IMG/VR virus record: IMGVR_UViG_2531839476_000009
Span: 1 to 9,273 of that record
Origin: a virus
Taxonomy: Duplodnaviria > Heunggongvirae > Uroviricota > Caudoviricetes
Length of the DNA: 9,273 bases
Direction: 5' to 3' (one strand)
Shown: positions 1 to 9,273 of the stretch, one piece after another
How positions within the stretch are numbered: the first letter of the stretch is position 1
Layout of the letters: each line of letters starts with the position of its first letter
Notes under the pieces: generated by a model
What the model was told of the DNA's origin: nothing
The model's input: only the letters and a program-made list of their open reading frames with translations
Databases searched by the model: none
Program-made: the position numbers and the translations under genes

Positions 1-1
1 A

Positions 2-571
2 ATGACCCCGAATTTTGCGACCACCATGACTAACGCGCTTGCGGGTAAGCAACCGAAGGATGCCACCCTGACGGCGCTGGCGGAGCTTGCTACATCAGCA
101 GATAAACTCCCATATTTTACAGGGGCAGATCGTGCCGCGTTAACCGCGTTGACAAGTGTTGGACGTGCCATTCTTGGTAAAACCAGCACTCAGGGAGTTC
201 TTGATTACCTTGGTTTGGGAGAAGCGGCGAAAAGGGATGTGGGCACAGGAGAAAATCAGATACCGGATATGTCAGCCTGGAAAAGAAATCCGAGTTCTAA
301 TCGCTGGAGAAAATTGCCTGATGGAACCATCATTCAAATGGGAATATCAGCATCAGGGCCATTAGGCTCACCTGTAAATATCACCCTGCCGATATCTTTC
401 AGCAATACCAATTATTGTGTTGTTGCATCGTACGATAATGCACGGTCAGGTGTGTCAACAATGGTTAGTTTTGCAGCGTTACCTGTTTCACCATCGCAAT
501 TTTCCCTGATGTCATCTGTGACTGAGCAAGGAATAAATCCTTTTGCTTACTGGATTGCTTTTGGAGATTAA
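2..571 (+). CDS. Tail fibre protein, C-terminal part (5' end lies upstream of the window); constant region up to about residue 72, then the currently expressed variable receptor-binding tip
   Basis: ORF open from the window start, stop TAA 569-571. The crossover site at 198-223 lies in frame inside it and encodes ...DYLGLGE.... It is directly followed by a tail-fibre assembly gene, the Mu S-U / P2 H-G arrangement. Confidence 0.85.
   Translation: MTPNFATTMTNALAGKQPKDATLTALAELATSADKLPYFTGADRAALTALTSVGRAILGKTSTQGVLDYLGLGEAAKRDVGTGENQIPDMSAWKRNPSSNRWRKLPDGTIIQMGISASGPLGSPVNITLPISFSNTNYCVVASYDNARSGVSTMVSFAALPVSPSQFSLMSSVTEQGINPFAYWIAFGD
198..223. repeat. Left crossover site for the serine DNA invertase (gix/pix/cix/hix-like, 26 bp)
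   Basis: ttcttgattaccttggtttgggagaa. Its inner half plus core forms a perfect 15-bp inverted repeat (210-224 ttggtttgggagaag) with 2062-2076. Imperfect dyad half-sites flank a central 2 bp, as in the Gin/Hin site family. Confidence 0.75.
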
Positions 572-574
572 TAA

Positions 575-994
575 ATGGATAGATACTTCTATTCACAAAA
601 AGAAAATGGTTTTTTTACCGATTTAAATAAAGCACCTTCAGATGCTGTTGAGATAACCACGGATGAATGGCTGTTACTACTGGATGGTCAGGATAATGGC
701 ATGAAAATAGTCAGCAATCAGGAGGGATATCCGGTTTTGACAGAGCAACCACCTTTATCAAAAGAAAACCTTATTGCATTGGCGGATTTGAAAAAAAGAA
801 AACTTATTAATGAAGCCAACGAGCACATGAACAGCAGACAATGGCCAGGTAAAGCGGCGATTGGTCGCCTGAAAGGTGAGGAACTGGCGCAATATAATTT
901 GTGGCTGGATTATCTGGACGCACTGGAACTGGTCGATACTTCCGGTGCGCCAGATATTGAATGGCCTACGCCTCCGGCAGTTCAGGCCAGATGA
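575..994 (+). CDS. Tail fibre assembly protein (chaperone for the + orientation fibre tip)
   Basis: ATG at 575, 4 nt after the fibre stop. C-terminal motif ...LWLDYLDALELVDTSGAPDIEWPTPP resembles the conserved Tfa C-terminus. Sits where Mu U / P2 G would be. Confidence 0.8.
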   Translation: MDRYFYSQKENGFFTDLNKAPSDAVEITTDEWLLLLDGQDNGMKIVSNQEGYPVLTEQPPLSKENLIALADLKKRKLINEANEHMNSRQWPGKAAIGRLKGEELAQYNLWLDYLDALELVDTSGAPDIEWPTPPAVQAR

Positions 995-1571
995 CGTCCG
1001 GCGCTGTGCTGGTATCTGTTGCCGTCACCGCGTCAATGTAATCCAGCACAGCGTTAAGTCGGGGGTTTTCTGTCTGCATCAGCTTCCGCCCGGCCTGCAA
1101 TTTCAGTTGAATCAGACTAATGGAAGCCATTGCAGTATCAATCAGTGACTGACGCTGTGCTTCTGCCGCGCCTACTGCGGCGCTATGCTGTGCCTCAGTA
1201 TCTGTCACCCATTTCTCACCATCCCATTCATCGTATGGCGTTAACGGGGCGATAGTGGTTGTATTTTCAGGATAATCACCCGGAGCTGTGATTTCTTTCG
1301 ATTCTCCTGTTTCGGTGCTATAGATGATTTCACCGCGATGGTCTGGCACATATTCCCATGAGTTAAAATCTGCAGAACGGCAGATTGCATAACCAGCTTT
1401 ATGTGTAACTGGTGCATCTAAACAAGAACATGCCGGGATACCGACGCCGACAGCGAGATATTCAGTTGATGTAGAAATATATTCCCGCGTTTCACCATCA
1501 TAATTATAAACGGTAATATCTCCCGCTTTTATGGCAATGAGTTCGCTATTTAATACAGCTTTATTCATCAT
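966..1571 (-). CDS. Tail fibre assembly protein (alternative, for the - orientation fibre tip)
   Basis: N-terminus MMNKAVLNSELIAIKAGDITVYNYDGETREY... and C-terminus ...LNAVLDYIDAV...APDVIWPELP are typical of enterobacterial Tfa/gpG-family proteins. Start overlaps the upstream fibre stop (ATGA). Confidence 0.85.
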   Translation of the reverse strand: MMNKAVLNSELIAIKAGDITVYNYDGETREYISTSTEYLAVGVGIPACSCLDAPVTHKAGYAICRSADFNSWEYVPDHRGEIIYSTETGESKEITAPGDYPENTTTIAPLTPYDEWDGEKWVTDTEAQHSAAVGAAEAQRQSLIDTAMASISLIQLKLQAGRKLMQTENPRLNAVLDYIDAVTATDTSTAPDVIWPELPEA

Positions 1572-2088
1572 GCGGCCCTTACAATATAATTAAAAGCGAT
1601 GTTACGAGGACGAGTTTCTGTACCTACATTTTCACTAATTTCACCATAACGTTTAACACTACGAGAGCTAATAGCTCGTAGTGAGGAAGGCACATTAAGA
1701 CCGGGTTCGTCCGTTTTAACTATTCCCCCGTCACCGTATGTAGCCAGTATTCCTGGGTTTACTCCTTCCCGTGCACTTCCTGCGGCGAGTCCGTCCCCTG
1801 TCCATAATTCCATATAGTGTGCATGGTCCAAAATTGTGTGTGGCTGCCAATTAAGCAAAGCGCGACCAGTATCAATCCCGCGACCGTCATCCCAGCCACG
1901 AATAAATTCACCGCGTAAATCAGGCAATTTATTGGTCGGGTAAGCCTTTGCCAGTTCCGGGTATTCTTCAGCAGAAAAAGCCGCACCATTGCATTTCAGC
2001 CAGCCTGTTGGCGGAGTGGCTGAAGGCCACGGAACAGGCACCCCAACCGGTAATGCAGAGCCTTCTCCCAAACCAACGTTTAAGAAAA
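1568..2088 (-). CDS. Alternative tail-fibre variable C-terminal cassette (promoterless here; would fuse to the constant fibre region after inversion)
   Basis: Reading frame runs through the right crossover site and encodes the same LGLGE junction as the expressed fibre. Contains a tail-collar-like motif (PVGVPVPWPSATPPTGWLKCNGAAFSAEEYPELAKAYP). The ATG at 2116 in the ORF track is unlikely to be a real start. Confidence 0.8.
2063..2088. repeat. Right crossover site for the serine DNA invertase (26 bp)
   Basis: ttctcccaaaccaacgtttaagaaaa, 14/14 identical to the reverse complement of the inner half plus core of the left site. Lies 55 bp upstream of the invertase ATG. Confidence 0.75.
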
Positions 2089-2143
2089 TGCAGAGATTAC
2101 GGCTAACTGGCATCATCCCCGGTTTTTATTCAGGGGATCCATC

Positions 2144-2743
2144 ATGCTTATTGGCTATGTCCGCGTATCAACAAATGACCAGAATACAGAATTGCAGCGT
2201 AACGCGCTGGAGTGCGCAGGATGTGAACTAATTTTTGAAGATAAAATCAGCGGAACGAAATCAGCCAGACCGGGATTGAAAAAACTGATCAGAACGCTAT
2301 CAGAAGGAGATACGCTGGTTGTCTGGAAGCTGGACAGACTGGGCAGAAGTATGAAACACCTGATCACGCTTATTGAGGAATTGCGGGAAAAAGGTGTTAA
2401 TTTCCGTAGTCTGACGGACAGCATTGACACATCAACACCCATGGGGCGTTTCTTTTTTCACGTCATGGGGGCTTTAGCCGAAATGGAACGTGAATTAATT
2501 GTAGAGCGTACACTGGCCGGGCTGGCAGCAGCACGCGCACAAGGACGCATTGGCGGACGTCGCCCGAAGTTGACAAAAGAACAACACGAGCAAATAGCGA
2601 GGTTGATTAAAAACGGTCATGACAGGAAACAACTGGCGATCATTTACGACATCGGCATATCGACGATTTATCGTTATCACCCTGTAGGCGATATACAGGC
2701 TGAAGAAACAACCAGGCAGACTCAGGAAAATGAAAACCGCTAA
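2144..2743 (+). CDS. Site-specific DNA invertase, serine recombinase of the Gin/Pin/Cin/Hin family
   Basis: N-terminus MLIGYVRVSTNDQN... with catalytic-serine motif, ...VVWKLDRLGRS..., ...GRFFFHVMGALAEMERELI...RIGGRRPKLT... and a C-terminal helix-turn-helix region. SD aggggat lies upstream of the ATG. Very close to Gin/Pin as I recall them. Confidence 0.95.
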   Translation: MLIGYVRVSTNDQNTELQRNALECAGCELIFEDKISGTKSARPGLKKLIRTLSEGDTLVVWKLDRLGRSMKHLITLIEELREKGVNFRSLTDSIDTSTPMGRFFFHVMGALAEMERELIVERTLAGLAAARAQGRIGGRRPKLTKEQHEQIARLIKNGHDRKQLAIIYDIGISTIYRYHPVGDIQAEETTRQTQENENR

Positions 2744-2762
2744 TCTGACCATTAGCGGTTTT
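2733..2762. terminator. Probable bidirectional rho-independent terminator between the convergent invertase and gpU genes
   Basis: Perfect 12-bp stem aaaaccgctaat / attagcggtttt with a 6-nt loop. It overlaps the invertase stop codon and has T-rich flanks on both strands. Confidence 0.6.
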
Positions 2763-2769
2763 GCGTTAA

Positions 2770-3264
2770 TCAAAACAGCCCTTTAACGGAGCTGGCCGCG
2801 CTGTTAAGGGATGATGTGACCTTATCTTTGAAGCCGGACAGCATATCACTGAACGATGAGGATTGCAGGCGCTCCCGCAAATCCTCATCACAGCGTTCAA
2901 GGGTCAGTGAAAATTCTATCTTTTTCGCCTTACCGTAGCGATCAAACTCGGAACGGGTCGTATTCGTTCCAGTCAGGACATACATGCCGTAAATCTGCCC
3001 GACGCCATCAATCAAAGGCCAGGGTCGTCCTGTATAAGCCTGCGTGGTCAGCAGCGACAGCGACACTTCGCCACCTGTAATTTCAGGATAAAGCACACCA
3101 GAAAGAACGATGCGATCATCACCTGCACCGATATACTGCCAGCTTGCTGAACGGTTAATGCGTTCATTTTTCACATGCCGCCAGCTTTTGTTTTGCTGTA
3201 ACTGCTGATGCGGCAGCGTGCGCAGCTCAAAAACAAACATGCCGTAGATCATCATCATGGCCAT
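2770..3264 (-). CDS. Tail protein gpU-like
   Basis: 164 aa. N-terminus ...MMMIYGMFVFELRTLPHQQLQ...SWRH... and ...IEFSLTLER... resemble P2 gpU. Lies immediately downstream of the tape-measure gene. Confidence 0.9.
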   Translation of the reverse strand: MAMMMIYGMFVFELRTLPHQQLQQNKSWRHVKNERINRSASWQYIGAGDDRIVLSGVLYPEITGGEVSLSLLTTQAYTGRPWPLIDGVGQIYGMYVLTGTNTTRSEFDRYGKAKKIEFSLTLERCDEDLRERLQSSSFSDMLSGFKDKVTSSLNSAASSVKGLF

Positions 3265-3270
3265 GACTCC

Positions 3271-6086
3271 TCAATCTTTATCGTAAAAACTGCCACGCCC
3301 GGCACGGGCGCGCCGTTCCATTTCTGCCCTGACCATTTCACCGACCAGTTTCGCCAGTTCGCGGGGATTCTGCGTAACAACGTTATGCAGATGAACATGA
3401 ATTTCACCACCAAATTCGGAGGCAACAGGCTCCCGGTTACGGGAAGTTACAGGAACTGATGCCACTGGAGATCGTATAGCCTCCGCCACCGGGCGGGAGC
3501 TGGCCGCAACAACAGTGACCAGCGCCGGAGGCAGCGGAGCCGGGACCACGGGTGTGATATTAATTGCGGGGGCAGGCTTACTGACCTGCGCAATCTTCCG
3601 CTCCTGCCACTCCCCACGAACAGCAAGTGCGCGGGGCAGGTTCTTAAAGACAATATCGCCGGGGCCAATGCGTTTTTTCGTCTCATCAACCAGCTTACCT
3701 GTGTTATCAGCAATTTTGCTGAGTCTGCGTAGCGTCCCGGTATTGCTGTCTGTGAGCGGTTTGTTGTCTTTGGGTTTATCACCTCCGGTGCCATTGCCAT
3801 TTTCCACAGGCTTCGGCGGATTGATTTTCGCAAGGTCCCCCTGAAGCAAGGCAACCTTGTCCTGAAGAATGGCCGCACGCTGTGCGTCTTCGATTTTCTT
3901 GCGCGCCTTTTCCGCTTCATCCGGAAGGACGCCAAGTTTTTCAAGTATCCACGCCAGCGTATCCAGTAGCATTTTTGCAGGTGTCAGAACAAGCTGTAAC
4001 GCACCGCCAAGAACGTTACCGAATATCTCGCCAGCACTGGTACATTTATCCAGCGTTTCCTTGCTGGACTCCATCGGTGACAGCAGCGATTTAAACCAGT
4101 TAAACACCTGGCTGATCCCGCTTCCGATTGCGTCAAAAACAGGACCAAACCGTTCAAAGGTTTCGCGCAACGGGGTCAGCCTTTCCATAATCCCGCTGAA
4201 CACCCCGGCAAAAATGCCCTGATGGGATCCCAGTATTTCCAGATAAGAACGGCAGCTCCGGCAAGCGCAGCCACGATAAGACCAACCGGACTGAACAGCG
4301 CCCCGATAGCGCCTCCCAGTAAAGAAACGGAACCCGTCACCATTCCCCATAGTGCTGGCAGGACCCTGACAGCATTCATTGATCCGGTCAGGAGAGAAAA
4401 ACCAAGACGCAGTTTTGCCAGCGGACCAGCAAGCACACCAATAGCCAGCGACAACGAGCCAACCGTTGCAGTCATTGCCAGCAACGCACCGCCTGCTATC
4501 AGTAGCTGGCGCGTCAGTGCCGGATGGGCCTGCGCCAGCGCCGTCACCCTTGATACCACCCGCGCGAGCCACTGCGTGACAGAACGCAGCGGACCGTCAA
4601 TCAGATCTGCAATGCGGATGCGCAACCCTTCCCATGCACTGCCGAGTGATTTCAGATCGCCGTCAAGGTTGTTGGCCATAACCTTTGCTGTGCGTTCAGC
4701 CTCACCGCGCGCGCCTTCAAGTTCTTTTCTCAGTTTGGGTAAGGAACCGTCACCCGCTGCATCAACGAGCGCCATAAACGATGTGAAAGCCTCTTCTCCG
4801 GCAATGTCCTTAAAGAACGATACCCGGTCAACTTCCCCGTATTTGCGGGTGGCTTTATAAAGGTCGGCCAGCACATCCTCCATCGGGCGCATTTTGCCCC
4901 CGGCATCCGAGACGGACACGCCCAGCTCTTTCAGAGCTTCTGCCGCCGCCTTTGGCGGTGATGCCAGACGAGCCAGGCTGGCACGCATTGCCGTCCCGGC
5001 ATCACTCCCTCTGATGCCCATATTCGCCAGCACGCCAGCCATCGCTGCGGCCTGCTCCAGCGATATTCCCAGCTTACCCGCCACCGGACCTGCATATTTC
5101 ATGGTTTCGCCCAGTGCGCGAAGGTCAGTGTTGGTACGGGTAAACGCTGCGGTGAGTGTGTCACCGACCCGGTCCATCTGGTCAGCAGAAAGGCCGAACT
5201 GCGTCAGGATATTTGAGCCAATATCCGCCGTCTCGCCGAGATCCATGCCGCCAGCCGTTGCCATGCTCAGCACGCCCGGAAGCGCAGCCTGAATGGCCTG
5301 CGGTGTGAAGCCAGCCATTGCAAGAAATGCCTGCCCACTGGCGGCATCGCCTGCGGTGAACTGCGTTTCAGAGCCAAGTTTTAACGCCTGCTCACGCAGC
5401 GCCTTAAACTGCGGGCTGTTCTGGTCGATTCGCGTCAGTGCCTGAACGCGGGACATCTCTTTCCCGAACCCGATCGCAGGCTGCAAAAAACGCCCGGCAG
5501 CATAGCCGCCAGCCGCTGCCGCACCAATTGCCAGCGCACCACCTGTTTTCAGTTTTCCCGCGGTTTCCTGCGCGCGCGAATACCGCTCACGCGCCCGCGT
5601 TACACGCGCAAGCGCCTGCCGTTCGCGTTCAAGCTGGTTGTTGTACTGTTCGGTGCGTCTGATGGCCTGCTGGATGGTGTTATCGCTGCCTGTCAGGGAA
5701 ATGCCGTGGCGTTTCAGCTCTCCGCCAAGCTCCCGCATTTTCTGAATTTCCCGTGTACGCGATTCATTCAGGCGTTCAAGCCGGGTGCTTAACTGCTGCA
5801 TCAGCTTTTGTTGTTTTTCGCTGAGCACTGTACCCGTGCGTTGTAACTGATTAAGGGCGTTAAGCTGGCGTCGTGCTTTCACGACGCCAGCATCCGCTTT
5901 ACTGACAGCGTCGCGGGCGCGCTCAAATGATCGCGCCTGACGCTCGAGATTTTTGATCGCCCCCTGCGTTCGCTGGATGGAGTCACCAAACTGCCCCATC
6001 AGGCGGCGGGCGTTTTCGGCAGGTCGGGTCAGCCTGTCAACGGCGCTGAAAGCGACCCGGATATCAAGAGTCTTCATTGTCTGCAT
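3271..6086 (-). CDS. Tail tape measure protein (gpT-like); reading frame interrupted by a 1-nt frameshift near 4210-4214
   Basis: Two overlapping ORFs (4176-6113 and 3271-4572) in different frames. Both carry tape-measure-like sequence; the upstream piece ends in a hydrophobic segment and the downstream frame only reads sensibly from about 4200. Start is probably the ATG at 6086 or 6077, overlapping the E' stop; the track start at 6113 is a GTG. Confidence 0.85.
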
Positions 6087-6593
6087 TCCCGCTGCGAAGT
6101 GCCGCCCGCTCACGCCAGCTAACCACTTCGCCGGGCGTCATCATGAAGATTTCGGCGGGCGACCAGTTAAAAATGGCGGCAATATCCGCCACAAAGTCTT
6201 CTATGTGCTCAAAGCACACAACCGTGATCAGGCTTCCGTCGCCTGTTCGTTCTTCCCGCCAGAGTCCGCACCGCTCAAAAAATTTACGGCAACCACACAT
6301 AACTGAATAAAGTCACGGGATGCCATTTTTTTGATCGTCACTTCATCCAGTCGCGGTGATGTCACGCGTGACAGCAGCGTAAACATGGATTCCGCTTTCA
6401 GATTCAGCACATCAGACAGCGACAAATCTCGCAGAGATCCAGCCTGCTCAATAGCCCCGGTGATCTCCACATACGTGATTTTTTCGCCGCCTCGCTCAAT
6501 GGGTTGGGTAAGTTTTACGCCACGCTCACTGGTTTCTTTCACAGTGTCAGTAACTACCGTGTTTTCGGTATCGATGTTTTTCGTCTCTTTCAT
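6064..6593 (-). CDS. gpE+E' tail assembly chaperone fusion produced by programmed -1 ribosomal frameshift (about 176 aa)
   Basis: E ORF (6228-6593) and E' ORF (6064-6300) overlap with E' in the -1 frame. The slippery heptamer T TTT TTG sits in the zero frame inside the overlap. Position is immediately upstream of the tape-measure gene, as for P2 E/E' and lambda G/GT. Confidence 0.7.
6228..6593 (-). CDS. gpE-like tail assembly chaperone (non-frameshifted product)
   Basis: 121-aa ORF with SD aaggag 8 nt upstream of the ATG, located between the tube and tape-measure genes. Confidence 0.85.
   Translation of the reverse strand: MKETKNIDTENTVVTDTVKETSERGVKLTQPIERGGEKITYVEITGAIEQAGSLRDLSLSDVLNLKAESMFTLLSRVTSPRLDEVTIKKMASRDFIQLCVVAVNFLSGADSGGKNEQATEA
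6276..6282 (-). promoter_or_regulatory. Slippery heptamer T TTT TTG for the E/E' -1 frameshift
   Basis: Minus-strand sequence aaT TTT TTG agc read in the E frame as N-F-L-S; after a -1 slip the E' frame reads F-F-E-R-C-G-L. Confidence 0.7.
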
Positions 6594-6614
6594 CAGGAAA
6601 CTCCTTTCAGTCAG

Positions 6615-6635
6615 AGGCGACGCACTGCGTCGCCT
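6615..6635 (-). other. Intercistronic hairpin between tube and gpE genes (possible mRNA-stability or attenuator element)
   Basis: aggcgacgc-act-gcgtcgcct, a 9-bp perfect stem with no following U-tract on the coding strand. Confidence 0.35.
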
Positions 6636-6647
6636 GCATATTACTTA

Positions 6648-7159
6648 TCAGCCAAGCCCAAGCGCGGAACGGATGCGATCGGGCACAATGTCCTTGCCGT
6701 CCTTCCGGTAGATGTGGTTCAACAGGTCGATTTCCCACAGCGGGCGATCGTTAACGCTCAGCTTGTAGTAGGTGTTTTTGACAGCGTAAGTGTGTGATGT
6801 GGCTTCGCCCTGTTTGGCTTCCCCCATATCAATTTCCGTCACACGCCCGCGCATCTCGATTTCATACAGATCGCTTTCTGCATCGGTGTAGTATTCACCC
6901 GCAAAACGCAGCAGCGTGCCGTCAATCGTGCCGCCATACTTAAGGAACAGCTCACGAACTGCGCCCCCCATGACAAAGCTCGCATCAAGCGCGGAGTCAT
7001 CCAGGCCGAGATCAATACTTACCGCTCCCATCATGCCACACCCCGGTAGCTGTCGGTTTTGCGCGTCAGCTTAGGCAAAGTGACGGACGTCACCTTACCC
7101 ACTTCGTTTTCACCATCCACAAACAGCGTAAAAAAGCGAAGATGTTTTGGCACAGCCAT
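6648..7159 (-). CDS. Tail tube protein (FII-like); reading frame interrupted by a 1-nt frameshift near 7038-7045
   Basis: The 128-aa ORF (6648-7034) contains ...DLGLDD...LRFAG...EIEMRGR..EIDMGEAKQGE..., resembling P2 FII but without its N-terminus. The missing N-terminus (MAVPKHLRFFTLFVDGENEVGKVTSVTLPKLTRKTDSYRG) is encoded in another frame, starting at an ATG at 7159-7157 that overlaps the sheath stop (TGATG). Confidence 0.85.
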
Positions 7160-8343
7160 CAGGCACCTCCCAGCACCGCAAATGCGGGGCCAAAGAATTC
7201 ATCAGTAAACGTCTGGTAAAGCTCCATGTCTTCCAGCGGGGGAACAGGCGTATATTTGTAGCGAATACGCACACGCCCCTGACGTAAATCCGTGGTGCTG
7301 TTATCCACCACGTCATACCAGCACTCCGCGCCAATCAGTTTCCCGGCAGTAACCAGTGAATCCAGTTTTGCCCTGATGGCACTGATAACATCCTTCACGT
7401 TCGCAGGCGTCAGTGGACTGTCGATGGTTTCAAACTGCGCTTCCGCAATTGAATCAGCCAGCACCTGTGCGGTTCGGGTATACACCTCAAAGATGTAGGC
7501 GTTCGTTTCCGGTGTGCGGTTGCCCCAGAAGCGGAACCCGTTGCGACGAATAATGGTCGTGATTTCTTTGTTGTTGAGGCTGTTGGCATCGCTGTCTTCG
7601 GCCTGCAACGACCAGAACACTTGCCTCGACATCCCCAGCACATTTTTAACCGGAACGTTGGACAGTGATTTGTGCCACCCCTGCTCAATGGTCAATGTAC
7701 GCACGAAGGCCGCACGCATAAGCAGGCGCGGGGAACGTTCGTTTTTGCCACTTTTCGGGTTGTAGGCGATGAAGTCCGGCCATAAGAGCATCACCTCACG
7801 TTCGTTGAATTTCTGGCGGTAGGTAATCGCCTCAGCCATCGTGTTACAGCCGTGACAGGAGGCATACACAAACGCGCGCAGTTTACCTGCAATCACGCAC
7901 ACGGATTTTGTTACCGCCTCCGTGTCCAGCTCCGGCGCGGCCAGAATACGCGGACGGTATCCGATGCTTTCATCCTGCTCTGCAACAAGCAGCGCATACA
8001 TCCCCGTATAGCTGCCGTCATCCTCAGAACCACCGATAACCAGTTGATCCTGCGTTTTTCCGTCTTCTTCTTTGTGTTCAGCCACGCGAACGACGATCAC
8101 CTTTGTGCTCACCTGGTCTGCGATGGCCTTAAGCGCACGATAAAGCGTCCCCGTTGTTCCGCATTTTCCCAGCACGTCATTGACGCGGGTCAGCAGTGTG
8201 GGCTTGTTCAGCGGGAACAGCTCCGCGTCCGCATCATCCGCCGTTGCCACGATACCGATAACACTGGAATCAACATCATTAATCGCTGTTACCAGGTCGG
8301 TACTTTCCGTAACACGGGCACCATGAAAACGAGTTTCACTCAT
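7159..8343 (-). CDS. Tail sheath protein (FI-like)
   Basis: 394 aa. Motifs ...FPLNKP..., ...RILA.P.LDT..., ...LLWPDF..., ...EQGWHK.LSN..., ...IRRNGFRFWGNRT..., ...YTRTAQV..., ...YKYTPVPPLE... resemble P2 FI. SD aagggg lies upstream of the ATG. Confidence 0.95.
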   Translation of the reverse strand: MSETRFHGARVTESTDLVTAINDVDSSVIGIVATADDADAELFPLNKPTLLTRVNDVLGKCGTTGTLYRALKAIADQVSTKVIVVRVAEHKEEDGKTQDQLVIGGSEDDGSYTGMYALLVAEQDESIGYRPRILAAPELDTEAVTKSVCVIAGKLRAFVYASCHGCNTMAEAITYRQKFNEREVMLLWPDFIAYNPKSGKNERSPRLLMRAAFVRTLTIEQGWHKSLSNVPVKNVLGMSRQVFWSLQAEDSDANSLNNKEITTIIRRNGFRFWGNRTPETNAYIFEVYTRTAQVLADSIAEAQFETIDSPLTPANVKDVISAIRAKLDSLVTAGKLIGAECWYDVVDNSTTDLRQGRVRIRYKYTPVPPLEDMELYQTFTDEFFGPAFAVLGGA

Positions 8344-8500
8344 AGCTTCAGCCCCTTGTATCCGTTAAATGATTCGGCAACAATCATCACCCAGCACGCG
8401 CGTAATCTCACCCCTGCGCCGTTCTCCCGCCACCGCGACAACAAAAAGCAGTAACCCCCTCCGCACGCACATGCGACCATGCCGCACAGGGAGGGAACAG
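8344..8500. promoter_or_regulatory. Divergent intergenic region between sheath (-) and gpD-like (+) genes; presumed promoter region
   Basis: 157-bp non-coding gap between two divergent starts, each with a good SD. No confident -35/-10 or Ogr-type late promoter motif could be placed by eye. Confidence 0.3.
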
Positions 8501-9241
8501 ATGACCGACACCACCATGCAATTGCTCAGTCAGGGCACAGACCCCGTGAAAATGCCGGATTTTGATATTCTCGCGGAGGGTAAAACGCTGTCAGGCGTGG
8601 CAGAGCGCCTGATGAGCCTGTCACTGACCGACAACCGGGGATTTGAAGCGGACCAGCTCACCATCACGCTGGATGATGCGGATGGTCAGTTGCAGCTACC
8701 GCCACGGGGCGCGCGCCTGACGGTTCTCATTGGCTGGAAAGGAGAACCGCTGACAGAAAAAGGCACTTACATTGTTGATGAAATCGCTCACGAAGGACCG
8801 CCGGACAGGCTGACTGTTTCAGCCAGAAGCGCAGATTTTCGGGATGAATTTAACGTTAAACGTGAGGTGTCCTGGCATGATGTGACCGTTGAGCGTGTGG
8901 TATCCGCCATCGCTCATCGGTATGGTCTGAAACCGCAAATCAGCGAAATGCTGATGGATATCGAAATCGACCACGCCGACCAGACCGAAGAAAGCGACAT
9001 GTCCTTCCTTACGCGCATGGCGGAAATGCTGGGCGCAATCACCACGGTAAAAAGCGGTAATCTGTTATTCATCATGCCCGGTGGTGGCGTGAACGCACAG
9101 GGCCAGCCGTTGCCATCGTTCGCCATCACACGCAGCAGCGGCGATCGCCATCAGTTCCGCATTGCTGACCGCGAGGCGTATACGGGGGTACGCGCTTACT
9201 GGCTTGATCTTAATTACGGGAAAAAGAAAAAGTCAGCGTGA
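8501..9241 (+). CDS. gpD-like tail protein (late control gene D family), N-terminal 246 aa; possibly truncated
   Basis: ATG at 8501 preceded by SD gggaggg. Motif ...LSLTDNRGFEADQLTITLDDADGQLQLPPRGARLTVLIGWKG... is typical of gpD/VgrG-type N-terminal domains. The in-frame Met at 8369 in the ORF track lacks an RBS. Confidence 0.8.
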   Translation: MTDTTMQLLSQGTDPVKMPDFDILAEGKTLSGVAERLMSLSLTDNRGFEADQLTITLDDADGQLQLPPRGARLTVLIGWKGEPLTEKGTYIVDEIAHEGPPDRLTVSARSADFRDEFNVKREVSWHDVTVERVVSAIAHRYGLKPQISEMLMDIEIDHADQTEESDMSFLTRMAEMLGAITTVKSGNLLFIMPGGGVNAQGQPLPSFAITRSSGDRHQFRIADREAYTGVRAYWLDLNYGKKKKSA

Positions 9242-9273
9242 AACGCCGCAAACCGCCAAAACCGAAAAAGAGA

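Follow-up and report, generated by a model that had tools for sequence, protein, structure and literature searches.

The closest described relative of the locus reported here is the P segment of the e14 prophage remnant in Escherichia coli K-12, a system first described in 1985, in which StfP, TfaP, TfaE, and StfE lie between the crossover sites pixL and pixR in the order tip, tfa, tfa', alternative tip, with the invertase PinE encoded outside the segment, as in our locus. The Mu G/Gin, P1 C/Cin, and Salmonella H/Hin systems share with it the enzyme family and the 26-bp site architecture. Mu and P1 also follow the same logic of alternative fibre C termini with their chaperones, but their segments are larger (3 kb and 4.2 kb, respectively), their half-sites differ, their tips are unrelated, and the core in Mu is GA, whereas Hin flips a promoter and not a coding end. 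Systems of the Gin/Hin type use a cis-acting enhancer, with two Fis sites spaced by about 48 bp and embedded in the 5' part of the invertase gene. Inversion has been confirmed by sequencing and PCR for the e14 P segment and for tail-fibre loci of P2-like prophages (PMC4272514, PMC12529663), including the experimentally demonstrated phase variation of the P2-like prophage tail-fibre loci of EPEC E2348/69 (PMC4272514).

We analysed a stretch of viral DNA of 9,273 nucleotides (IMG/VR record IMGVR_UViG_2531839476_000009, positions 1 to 9,273; hereafter the window), in which a preliminary description had proposed a complete invertible tail-fibre switch at 198-2088 in the arrangement of the Mu G segment. 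The locus is very probably a tail-fibre switch of the Pin/Gin family, that is, of the Fis-dependent serine invertases, in a P88-like prophage of the P2 family in E. coli, and it is an ordinary, textbook example of a system that is already known. The layout is indeed shared with Mu, but the closest relative is the pix/Pin system of e14, and the core is AA/TT, not GA/TC. Likewise, the proposed extent holds for the sites, but the functional unit is larger, adding the invertase gene at 2144-2743 and a likely enhancer in its 5' end. The features of the locus are the following, in window coordinates:

1-209, plus strand: 3' part of the fibre constant region (P2 gpH-type tail-fibre gene, whose start lies about 920 nt before the window)
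198-223, plus strand: left crossover site, pixL-type, TTCTTGATTACC TT GGTTTGGGAGAA, with its 2-bp core at 210-211
210-2076: invertible segment, 1867 bp core to core; E. coli WS3294A has it inverted, at 99.9% identity and with unchanged flanks
224-571, plus strand: tip A, with a Gp53-like C-terminal domain (Pfam PF21882 Gp53-like_C, 3.2e-13), fused to the fibre in this orientation
575-994, plus strand: tfa A, assembly chaperone for tip A, 139 aa (Pfam Caudo_TAP, 3.4e-25)
966-1571, minus strand: tfa B, chaperone for tip B, 201 aa, TfaE-like (Pfam Caudo_TAP, 8.5e-30), called tfaE in relatives
1568-2062, minus strand: tip B, with a tail-collar domain, StfE-like (Pfam Collar PF07484, 1.3e-15), unfused in this orientation
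2063-2088, plus strand: right crossover site, pixR-type, TTCTCCCAAACC AA CGTTTAAGAAAA, with its core at 2075-2076
2077-2116, minus strand: fixed 14-codon leader, MMPVSRNLCIFLNV, with its ATG at 2116, heading a stand-alone ORF with whichever tip is unfused
2144-2743, plus strand: serine DNA invertase of the Pin/Gin/Hin/Cin family, 199 aa (Pfam Resolvase, 8.9e-52, and HTH_7, 1.4e-12)
2165-2228: candidate recombinational enhancer with two G-N13-C Fis-type cores, GTATCAACAAATGAC at 2165-2179 and GCGCAGGATGTGAAC at 2214-2228
2733-2762: hairpin with a perfect 12-bp stem between the convergent invertase and gpU genes, probably a bidirectional terminator ending the module

Two pix-Type Crossover Sites Bound the Segment

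Crossover sites of the Gin/Hin/Cin/Pin family come as two inverted 26-bp sites, each with imperfect 12-bp half-sites flanking a 2-bp core, the two cores being identical in the same sense. Alignment with sites extracted from e14, Mu, P1, P88, and pro483, a check proposed in the preliminary description, shows this 12+2+12 layout at 198-223 and 2063-2088 and places both sites in the pix type, with an AA/TT core and the TTCTCCCAAACC inner half-site. The perfect 15-nt inverted repeat lies where it had first been placed (210-224 / 2062-2076) and reaches 18 nt (207-224 / 2062-2079) with a single mismatch at 209. The 15-mer, CTTCTCCCAAACCAA, is present in exactly two copies in the window, one per strand, and was absent from all 200 dinucleotide-preserving shuffles. 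The right site is identical to e14 K-12 pixR and to its pro483 counterpart at 25/26 bases, while the left site has the inner half-site and core of e14 pixL, pro483, and CH425 and differs from e14 in its outer half. Against the published e14 inverted repeats, TTGGTTTGGGAGAAGG / CCTTCTCCCAAACCAA (PMC12529663), the window repeats agree at 15/16 and 16/16 bases. The Mu G segment itself (gix/Gin, with core GA/TC, half-sites TTATCCAAAACC / TTCCTGTAAACC, and genes S/U and S'/U') was rejected as the identity of the locus on account of its different core and half-sites.

A mismatch-tolerant pattern search combined with a half-site scan of the whole window found no crossover sites beyond these two; weak site-like matches with three mismatches, at 555-568 and 6819-6832, are within chance expectation. 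Multiple-inversion systems have more than two crossover sites and so give more than two variants, and shufflons additionally need a tyrosine recombinase. With two sites only and a serine-type recombinase, the window does not belong with Rci shufflons, Min of p15B, or the four-variant locus of P2-like EPEC prophages.

Inversion Exchanges Unrelated Tips in Frame

Between the sites, the gene order first proposed (tip, tfa, tfa', alternative tip) is borne out by Pfam, with Gp53-like_C, two Caudo_TAP, and Collar matches. The two tips had been described as unrelated, with a collar motif on the minus-strand tip alone, and they do fall into different Pfam families and share no BLASTP similarity. Tip A, at 30% identity to K-12 StfP, is the counterpart of the StfP C terminus, and tip B is 59% identical to K-12 StfE, so that the tips of e14 and of the window belong to the same families, Gp53-like and collar, although distal tips have diverged. 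The two chaperones are related solely over their C-terminal ~68 residues (34% identity), and the 3' end of tfa B overlaps tfa A by 29 nt. The segment compares in size with the published 1797 bp of e14, but the window cassette belongs to a P2-family myovirus with a long gpH-type fibre, whereas K-12 e14 has the short StfP. K-12 e14 DNA matches the window at 827-1620 and 1859-2584 only (81-88%), while other e14-like and P2-like cassettes of E. coli are 92-94% identical across 207-2584. Upstream of the segment, the phage P88 fibre gene is 90% identical to window positions 7-124.

The left site lies in frame within the fibre gene, where ctt-gat-tac-cTT-ggt-ttg-gga-gaa is translated as L D Y L G L G E. 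The preliminary description had placed an LGLGE junction at both sites; it stands at the left site (DYLGLGE), but the minus-strand copy at the right site encodes N-V-G-L-G-E (gTT) before inversion, and the Leu codon arises on exchange, from the C of the left flank and the TT core. The reading frame is preserved in both cases, as seen when we inverted the segment in silico at the 2-bp core, checked the junctions codon by codon, and translated the flipped sequence. Relatives have full-length CDS annotations for both fusion fibres: strain 504838, with a near-identical prophage, has a 1494-nt "phage tail protein" CDS that terminates at window position 570, and in WS3294A a 1641-nt CDS encodes a 546-aa fibre whose C terminus is tip B, the fusion predicted from the window differing from it at 2/238 aa. 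Each tip has a Caudo_TAP gene 3' of it, as in C-terminus switches of the Mu G, P1 C, and e14 P type.

Each orientation also leaves a minus-strand ORF running from the ATG at 2116 through the fixed leader into the unfused tip. Its analogue in e14 of K-12 is StfE/StfE2 (PMC12529663), and in WS3294A it carries the PGAP annotation "gp53-like domain-containing protein". A consensus scan found no leftward sigma-70-like promoter into this ORF. Tip B is presumably silent in the present orientation, a qualification that we make because the ORF that contains it stands alone and has an ATG of its own.

The Adjacent Invertase Looks Active

Invertases of this family have ~185-200 aa, with a catalytic N-terminal domain whose nucleophilic Ser is at about position 9-10 and a helix-turn-helix domain at the C terminus; the gene next to the right site encodes the Resolvase and HTH_7 domains with the Ser at S9. 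The protein matches the Gin structures 4m6f and 3uj3 with E ~1e-91 (2.5e-91 for 4m6f, over residues 1-185), has the catalytic residues Y5, R7, S9, D64, R65, and R68 all in place, and is wild-type at H106 and M114. In Hin, K47, R48, K51, Q151, R154, and L155 contact Fis and the enhancer and are specifically conserved in Fis-dependent invertases (PMC3798978); their window equivalents, with numbering offset by -1, are K46, K47, R50, Q150, R153, and L154. Two outcomes had been named beforehand as refuting a switch, an inactive invertase together with a lack of reads for the inverted orientation, and sites that do not align with the Gin/Hin family; neither was observed. The enzyme is full-length with both residue sets present and, judged from its residues, looks active.

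The protein is a mosaic, with 109/120 identities to PinE over its N-terminal 120 aa, whereas residues 121-185 agree better with the P88 invertase (57/65) than with PinE (41/65), and its C terminus is 15 aa longer than in PinE. We therefore discarded the assignment to a Pin-type invertase over the full length: only the catalytic domain is Pin-like, and the DNA-binding domain is P88/Hin-like. Cross-complementation within the Pin/Gin/Hin/Cin family is known. Because the DNA-binding domain is not Pin-like, it is on this family trait that we assume an affinity of the enzyme for pix-type half-sites. The consensus scan gave no sigma-70-like promoter for the invertase either.

The two Fis-type cores in the 5' part of the gene are identical at 15/15 and 14/15 bases to the same positions in Mu gin, which we take to be the mapped Gin enhancer, and they lie 49 bp apart, centre to centre, against the canonical ~48 bp. 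Conservation of synonymous codons peaks at this candidate enhancer. The first core is ~97 bp from the right crossover core, the corresponding distance in hin being ~100 bp (PMC3798978).

From the characterised Gin, Hin, and Pin, we infer the following course for the reaction, including its dependence on Fis and the enhancer, the cleavage chemistry, the location of the promoter, and the effect on host range. Dimers of the invertase would bind both 26-bp sites and, together with Fis on the enhancer, would assemble an invertasome on supercoiled DNA. Both sites would be cut at their 2-bp cores, and a 180° rotation of one subunit pair, followed by religation, would flip the segment. The orientation in the window would express the Gp53-like tip with tfa A, and the flipped orientation the collar-type tip with tfa B. 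The constant N-terminal part of the fibre lies outside the segment, as would the late promoter, so each orientation would yield a single fibre with a single chaperone. Two receptor specificities would then be represented in the lysate of a mixed population, and the tip swap probably changes the host range of the phage.

Both Orientations Occur across E. coli Strains

The opposite orientation, which the preliminary description had proposed to look for in the source strain, is present in other copies of this prophage among public E. coli assemblies. The flipped construct aligned in one piece over all 2800 nt to WS3294A and CE0021a (99.8-100%), while the native orientation of the window matched 504838 and LR882997 (99.5-99.7%). 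In two apparently clonal hospital isolates, CH425 and CH423, the flanks are 100% identical over 16.3 kb, and the only difference is a clean inversion of the cassette, which is 94% identical to that of the window. Both orientations of the segment thus exist in nature.

Inverted repeats in principle permit inversion by RecA-dependent homologous recombination, and assemblers may choose either orientation of a mixed population, but we find it hardly credible that the orientation differences arose in either way. The repeats share 15-18 bp only, well below the length for efficient RecA recombination, and they coincide exactly with 26-bp sites of the Gin/Hin type adjoining a matching invertase; an assembler confused by a mixed population would itself be evidence of switching.

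It is possible, if doubtful, that inversion is carried out mainly or only in trans by invertases encoded elsewhere (PinE, PinQ, or those of other prophages), with the adjacent gene dispensable or inactive. The clean inversion between CH425 and CH423 occurred despite an adjacent invertase that is a 200-nt frameshifted remnant, and in the e14-like cassette of O103:H2 strain 12009 pinE is frameshifted, while its relatives are found in both orientations. Furthermore, E. coli genomes with a match carry a median of two such loci, and inversion in trans has been shown for the e14 P segment with PinQ of prophage Qin (PMC12529663). The window invertase, on the other hand, is intact in the respects given above, and an identical invertase protein is encoded in at least three prophages (those of the window, WS3294A, and 504838) that between them represent both orientations. 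Action in trans is also compatible with action in cis.

A P88-Type Backbone with an Exchanged Module

The backbone is that of a P88-like (Xuanwuvirus) prophage of the P2 family: Escherichia phage P88 (Xuanwuvirus, Peduoviridae) is 95.8% identical over window 2133-9268 and shares its unusual arrangement, in which U-T-E-FII-FI follow the invertase on the minus strand and gpD is encoded on the plus strand, as well as the type of the invertase DNA-binding domain. Other P2-family cassettes (pro483, the P2-like prophages of EPEC E2348/69, and CH425/CH423) are likewise placed after gpI/gpH in the late operon; in pro483 and CH425/CH423 the sites are of the pix type, with inner half-site and core identical to those of the window, and the invertase lies immediately downstream. 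In pro483 and CH425, however, the sheath, tube, E, T, U, and D genes follow the canonical P2 order on one strand, whereas the FI-U block of the window is on the opposite strand. A second inversion of this tail block (5.6 kb, 2770-8343, minus strand) by the same invertase was considered and rejected, since no site-like inverted repeats flank it; given that the functional phage P88 has the same layout, the minus-strand arrangement is a trait of the genus and not a rearrangement.

On this backbone, P88 itself carries a Mu-like cassette, in which the sites are gix-type (TTCCTGTAAACC GA GGTTTTAGATAA, core GA), the catalytic domain is Gin-like, and the tips are different and without DNA similarity to the window. 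The presence of a Mu-like cassette in P88 and of a pix-type cassette in the window therefore indicates that the whole inversion module has been swapped.

The window copy of the prophage may be defective. Relative to both close relatives, WS3294A and 504838, it has 1-nt indels in four tail genes: one at 4209 breaks the tape-measure gene into two ORFs (4176-6113 and 3271-4572), one at 7038 truncates the tube gene, and others lie at 7687/7737 in the sheath gene and at 9226 in gpD. For this reason it may make no virions, and the switch may consequently have no effect on host range here. We think it unlikely that the prophage is decaying and the switch a relic, with inversion still possible but no particles and no host-range function in the source strain. 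The prophage of 504838 has frameshifts of its own, in the tape-measure gene and the silent tip, which would fit such decay, but the indels at 4209 and 9226, at least, fall within A runs, as is typical of sequencing error, and all the affected tail genes are intact in WS3294A. Moreover, the switch region (1-2800) has no indel relative to WS3294A, at 99.9% identity.

Annotation and Wider Readings

The finding opens no new question, and its value lies mainly in annotation. The locus is best recorded as one programmed unit comprising two fibre isoforms with their two chaperones, an invertase, a pair of pix sites, and an enhancer, rather than as pseudogenes or pieces of a "phage tail protein", and a difference in orientation between assemblies is not to be taken for a misassembly or a strain difference. 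It also provides a clean natural example of a P88-type backbone with either a gix/Gin-type or a pix/Pin-type module.

A more far-reaching interpretation concerns the stand-alone ORF, which could provide a second output of the switch; if the prophage copy is defective, the host could retain the cassette as a receptor-masking defence toggled by the recombinase and not as a device for phage host range. StfE2 from the inverted P segment of K-12 has been reported to block adsorption of phage T2 (PMC12529663), but we regard such a role here as quite improbable. In a milder variant, inversion modules may pass as a whole from one prophage backbone to another, unrelated one, breaking on one side at the crossover site itself: homology to the e14-like cassettes sets in at window 206-207, at a distance of 3-4 nt from the core, and runs out near 2584 in the invertase gene.

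Structure of the Invertible Segment

The switch is a P segment of the e14 type, with pix sites and a Pin-family invertase as in the cryptic K-12 prophage e14, carried within a P88-like prophage of the P2 family. This kind of switch is already known, having first been described in the 1980s, and phase variation of such systems in E. coli has been confirmed by sequencing (PMC4272514, PMC12529663). The preliminary description's observation of two inverted sites bracketing alternative fibre tips is confirmed, and its interpretation as a tail-fibre switch is supported. Four genes, two tips and two assembly genes, lie between the crossover sites, and the invertase gene is placed just beyond the segment:

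198-223, left crossover site, 26 bp, TTCTTGATTACC-TT-GGTTTGGGAGAA
224-571, plus strand, fibre tip A (Pfam Gp53-like_C)
575-994, plus strand, tail-fibre assembly gene tfa A (Caudo_TAP)
966-1571, minus strand, second, convergent assembly gene tfa B (Caudo_TAP)
1568-2062, minus strand, tip B (Pfam tail Collar)
2063-2088, right crossover site, 26 bp, TTCTCCCAAACC-AA-CGTTTAAGAAAA
2144-2743, plus strand, serine recombinase, 199 aa (Resolvase and HTH_7 domains)
2165-2179, candidate G-N13-C core 1 (15/15 identical to Mu gin)
2214-2228, candidate G-N13-C core 2 (14/15 identical to Mu gin)

The sequence bears out both 26-bp sites at the positions first proposed, as well as the perfect 15-nt inverted repeat (210-224 / 2062-2076), which reaches 18 nt if one mismatch (position 209) is allowed. 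The 15-mer has exactly two copies in the window, on opposite strands, and occurs in none of 200 dinucleotide-preserving shuffles. Common to both sites are the inner half-site and the 2-bp core, the outer half-sites being unlike, so the sites are unaltered by inversion. Checked against the Gin/Hin-type family, using sites taken from reference records by one same scan, they align and are pix-type: pixR of e14 equals the right site at 25/26 bases, with inner half-site and core identical, and the e14 inverted repeats as printed (PMC12529663) match the window sites.

Crossover sites in reference records
e14 (K-12): CTCTCGAAAACC TT GGTTTGGGAGAA / TTCTCCCAAACC AA CGTTTATGAAAA
pro483 (P2-family Escherichia phage): TTCTCGCATACC TT GGTTTGGGAGAA / TTCTCCCAAACC AA CGTTTATGAAAA
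Mu: TTATCCAAAACC TC GGTTTACAGGAA / TTCCTGTAAACC GA GGTTTTGGATAA
P1: CAATCCTAAACC TT GGTTTAAGAGAA / TTCTCTTAAACC AA GGTATTGGATAA

Sequence comparison detects no similarity between tips A and B, and the two chaperones are alike only over their C-terminal ~68 residues (34% identity). Pfam agrees with the earlier reading that only the unfused tip has a collar-like motif. The e14 protein StfP is the counterpart of tip A (30% identity) and StfE that of tip B (59%), whose collar part is conserved and whose distal part has diverged. The LGLGE junction, thought to be encoded identically at both sites, is in frame at the left site (L-D-Y-L-G-L-G-E); the minus strand of the right site reads N-V-G-L-G-E before inversion, one residue off. 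After exchange at the TT/AA core, cTT is followed directly by GGT-TTG-GGA-GAA with no shift of frame, and translation of the sequence flipped in silico (...DYLGLGEGSALPVGVPVPWPS...) is open until a stop.

Both Orientations Occur in E. coli Genomes

With the segment inverted in silico as predicted, we screened 5,426 complete E. coli genomes. Strains WS3294A and CE0021a match the flipped construct in one piece over all 2800 nt (99.8-100%), and 504838 and LR882997 match the unflipped window, likewise in one piece (99.5-99.7%); counting looser relatives (coverage at least 80%), 14 genomes have the window orientation and 10 the opposite one. In pairwise BLAST of WS3294A with the window the flanks are collinear and 207-2079 is reversed at 99.9%, the window, WS3294A, and 504838 encode identical invertase proteins, and the predicted fusion fibre differs from the annotated 546-aa WS3294A fibre at 2/238 residues.

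A short-timescale case of inversion is provided by CH425 and CH423, two isolates from one hospital, whose cassette is about 94% identical to the window segment and shares its inner half-site and core. Their flanks (8,028 nt and 8,271 nt, 16.3 kb) are 100% identical, and the sole difference is a clean inversion of the 1.87-kb segment (locus positions 8002-9892). The adjoining invertase is only a 200-nt frameshifted remnant, so such segments can be flipped in trans, which implies that an invertase from another part of the genome acted here; PinQ is reported to act in trans on the e14 segment (PMC12529663).

Strain 504838, the closest relative with matching orientation, has a frameshift within a run of C in its unfused collar tip (L001, our 504838 locus, 21567-22069; window 1725, CCCCC versus CCCC in 504838), and flipping there would result in a truncated fibre.

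Invertase and Candidate Enhancer

Residues 1-185 of the invertase align to solved Gin structures (E about 1e-91), and the protein also matches the Hin DNA-binding domain (E = 1.6e-11). It retains Y5, R7, S9, D64, R65, and R68, together with wild-type H106 and M114, positions at which Gin yields hyperactive, enhancer-independent mutants. Also retained are the equivalents of Hin K47, R48, K51, Q151, R154, and L155, whose conservation is reported to be specific to Fis/enhancer-dependent invertases (PMC3798978). Judged by its sequence, the protein is mosaic, its catalytic domain being Pin-like and its DNA-binding domain P88/Hin-like: residues 1-120 are identical to pro483 at 111/120 positions and to PinE at 109/120, and residues 121-185 match P88 at 57/65 and PinE at only 41/65, the switch in similarity falling around window 2500-2584.

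Over its first ~90 nt the gene aligns at nearly every base with Mu gin, P88, pro483, and e14 pin, and about 97 bp separate the G-N13-C core at 2165-2179 from the crossover core, the equivalent distance in hin being about 100 bp (PMC3798978). Where the amino acid is invariant across six invertase genes, codon identity stands at 0.71 over codons 1-15, 0.55 over codons 16-45, and 0.24-0.51 beyond, a pattern compatible with a cis element inside the coding sequence. On sequence grounds, the 5' end of the invertase gene holds a likely enhancer with putative Fis sites.

Prophage Backbone and Module Exchange

The near-identical prophage of 504838 is a P2-family element with a GPO scaffold, P2-type capsid, gpV/W/J/I, and a 1494-nt gpH-type fibre. 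Downstream of the invertase, the minus strand of window 2770-8343 encodes gpU, tape measure (T), E, tube (FII), and sheath (FI), and gpD follows on the plus strand (8501-9273), so that the gpU-FI tail block runs opposite to fibre, invertase, and gpD. This layout is the reverse of the canonical P2 order of pro483, whereas the Xuanwuvirus phage P88 shares the window's layout exactly, with 95.8% identity over 2133-9268; the orientation is therefore a trait of the genus or lineage, and a search for site-like inverted repeats flanking 2770-8343 found none.

In the equivalent position P88 has a Mu-like module with gix-type sites and core GA (invertase at L007, the P88 locus, 9001-9588). From 206-207 to about 2584 the window's module is common, at 92-94%, to e14-like and P2-like elements of other E. 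coli. The same backbone thus holds a Mu-like module in P88 and a pix-type one here, indicating exchange of the whole inversion module, and the invertase mosaic corresponds to the module's end at about 2584.

Possible Decay of This Copy

Compared with WS3294A and also with 504838, the window differs by 1-nt indels at 4209, 7038, 7687, 7737, 9226, and 9270. The two relatives agree at all of these except 4209, where WS3294A carries an additional A and 504838 an additional T. The indel at 4209 breaks the tape-measure gene into two ORFs (4176-6113 and 3271-4572), that at 7038 leaves the tube gene without its N terminus (ORF 6648-7034, versus 513 nt), those at 7687 and 7737 shift about 17 codons within the sheath gene, and that at 9226 makes gpD terminate prematurely at 9241. 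Because 4209 and 9226, at least, fall within A runs, the indels may be either sequencing errors or prophage decay; if real, they would mean no particles from this copy.

Stand-Alone ORF and Control Elements

A stand-alone minus-strand ORF (1568-2116) has its own ATG at 2116 and a fixed 14-aa leader, and in each orientation it holds whichever tip lacks fibre fusion. PGAP annotates it in WS3294A, and its e14 analogue is StfE/StfE2, of which StfE2 is reported to have an anti-T2 role, blocking adsorption (PMC12529663). By analogy with StfE2 the ORF might be expressed, so the term "silent" in the preliminary description is presumptive for the unfused tip. Promoter searches in the window found none for this ORF (minus strand) or for the invertase gene.

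The convergent invertase and gpU genes are separated by a hairpin with a perfect 12-bp stem (2733-2762, AAAACCGCTAAT / ATTAGCGGTTTT), probably a bidirectional terminator, whose left arm contains the invertase stop codon. Another hairpin with a T run after it (2105-2124) occupies part of the gap from the right crossover site to the start codon of the invertase gene. An alignment with Mu, P88, pro483, and e14 shows conservation of the bases on either side of it (TGGCAT...TTTT), and the hairpin may shield the invertase gene from read-through or belong to its control region.
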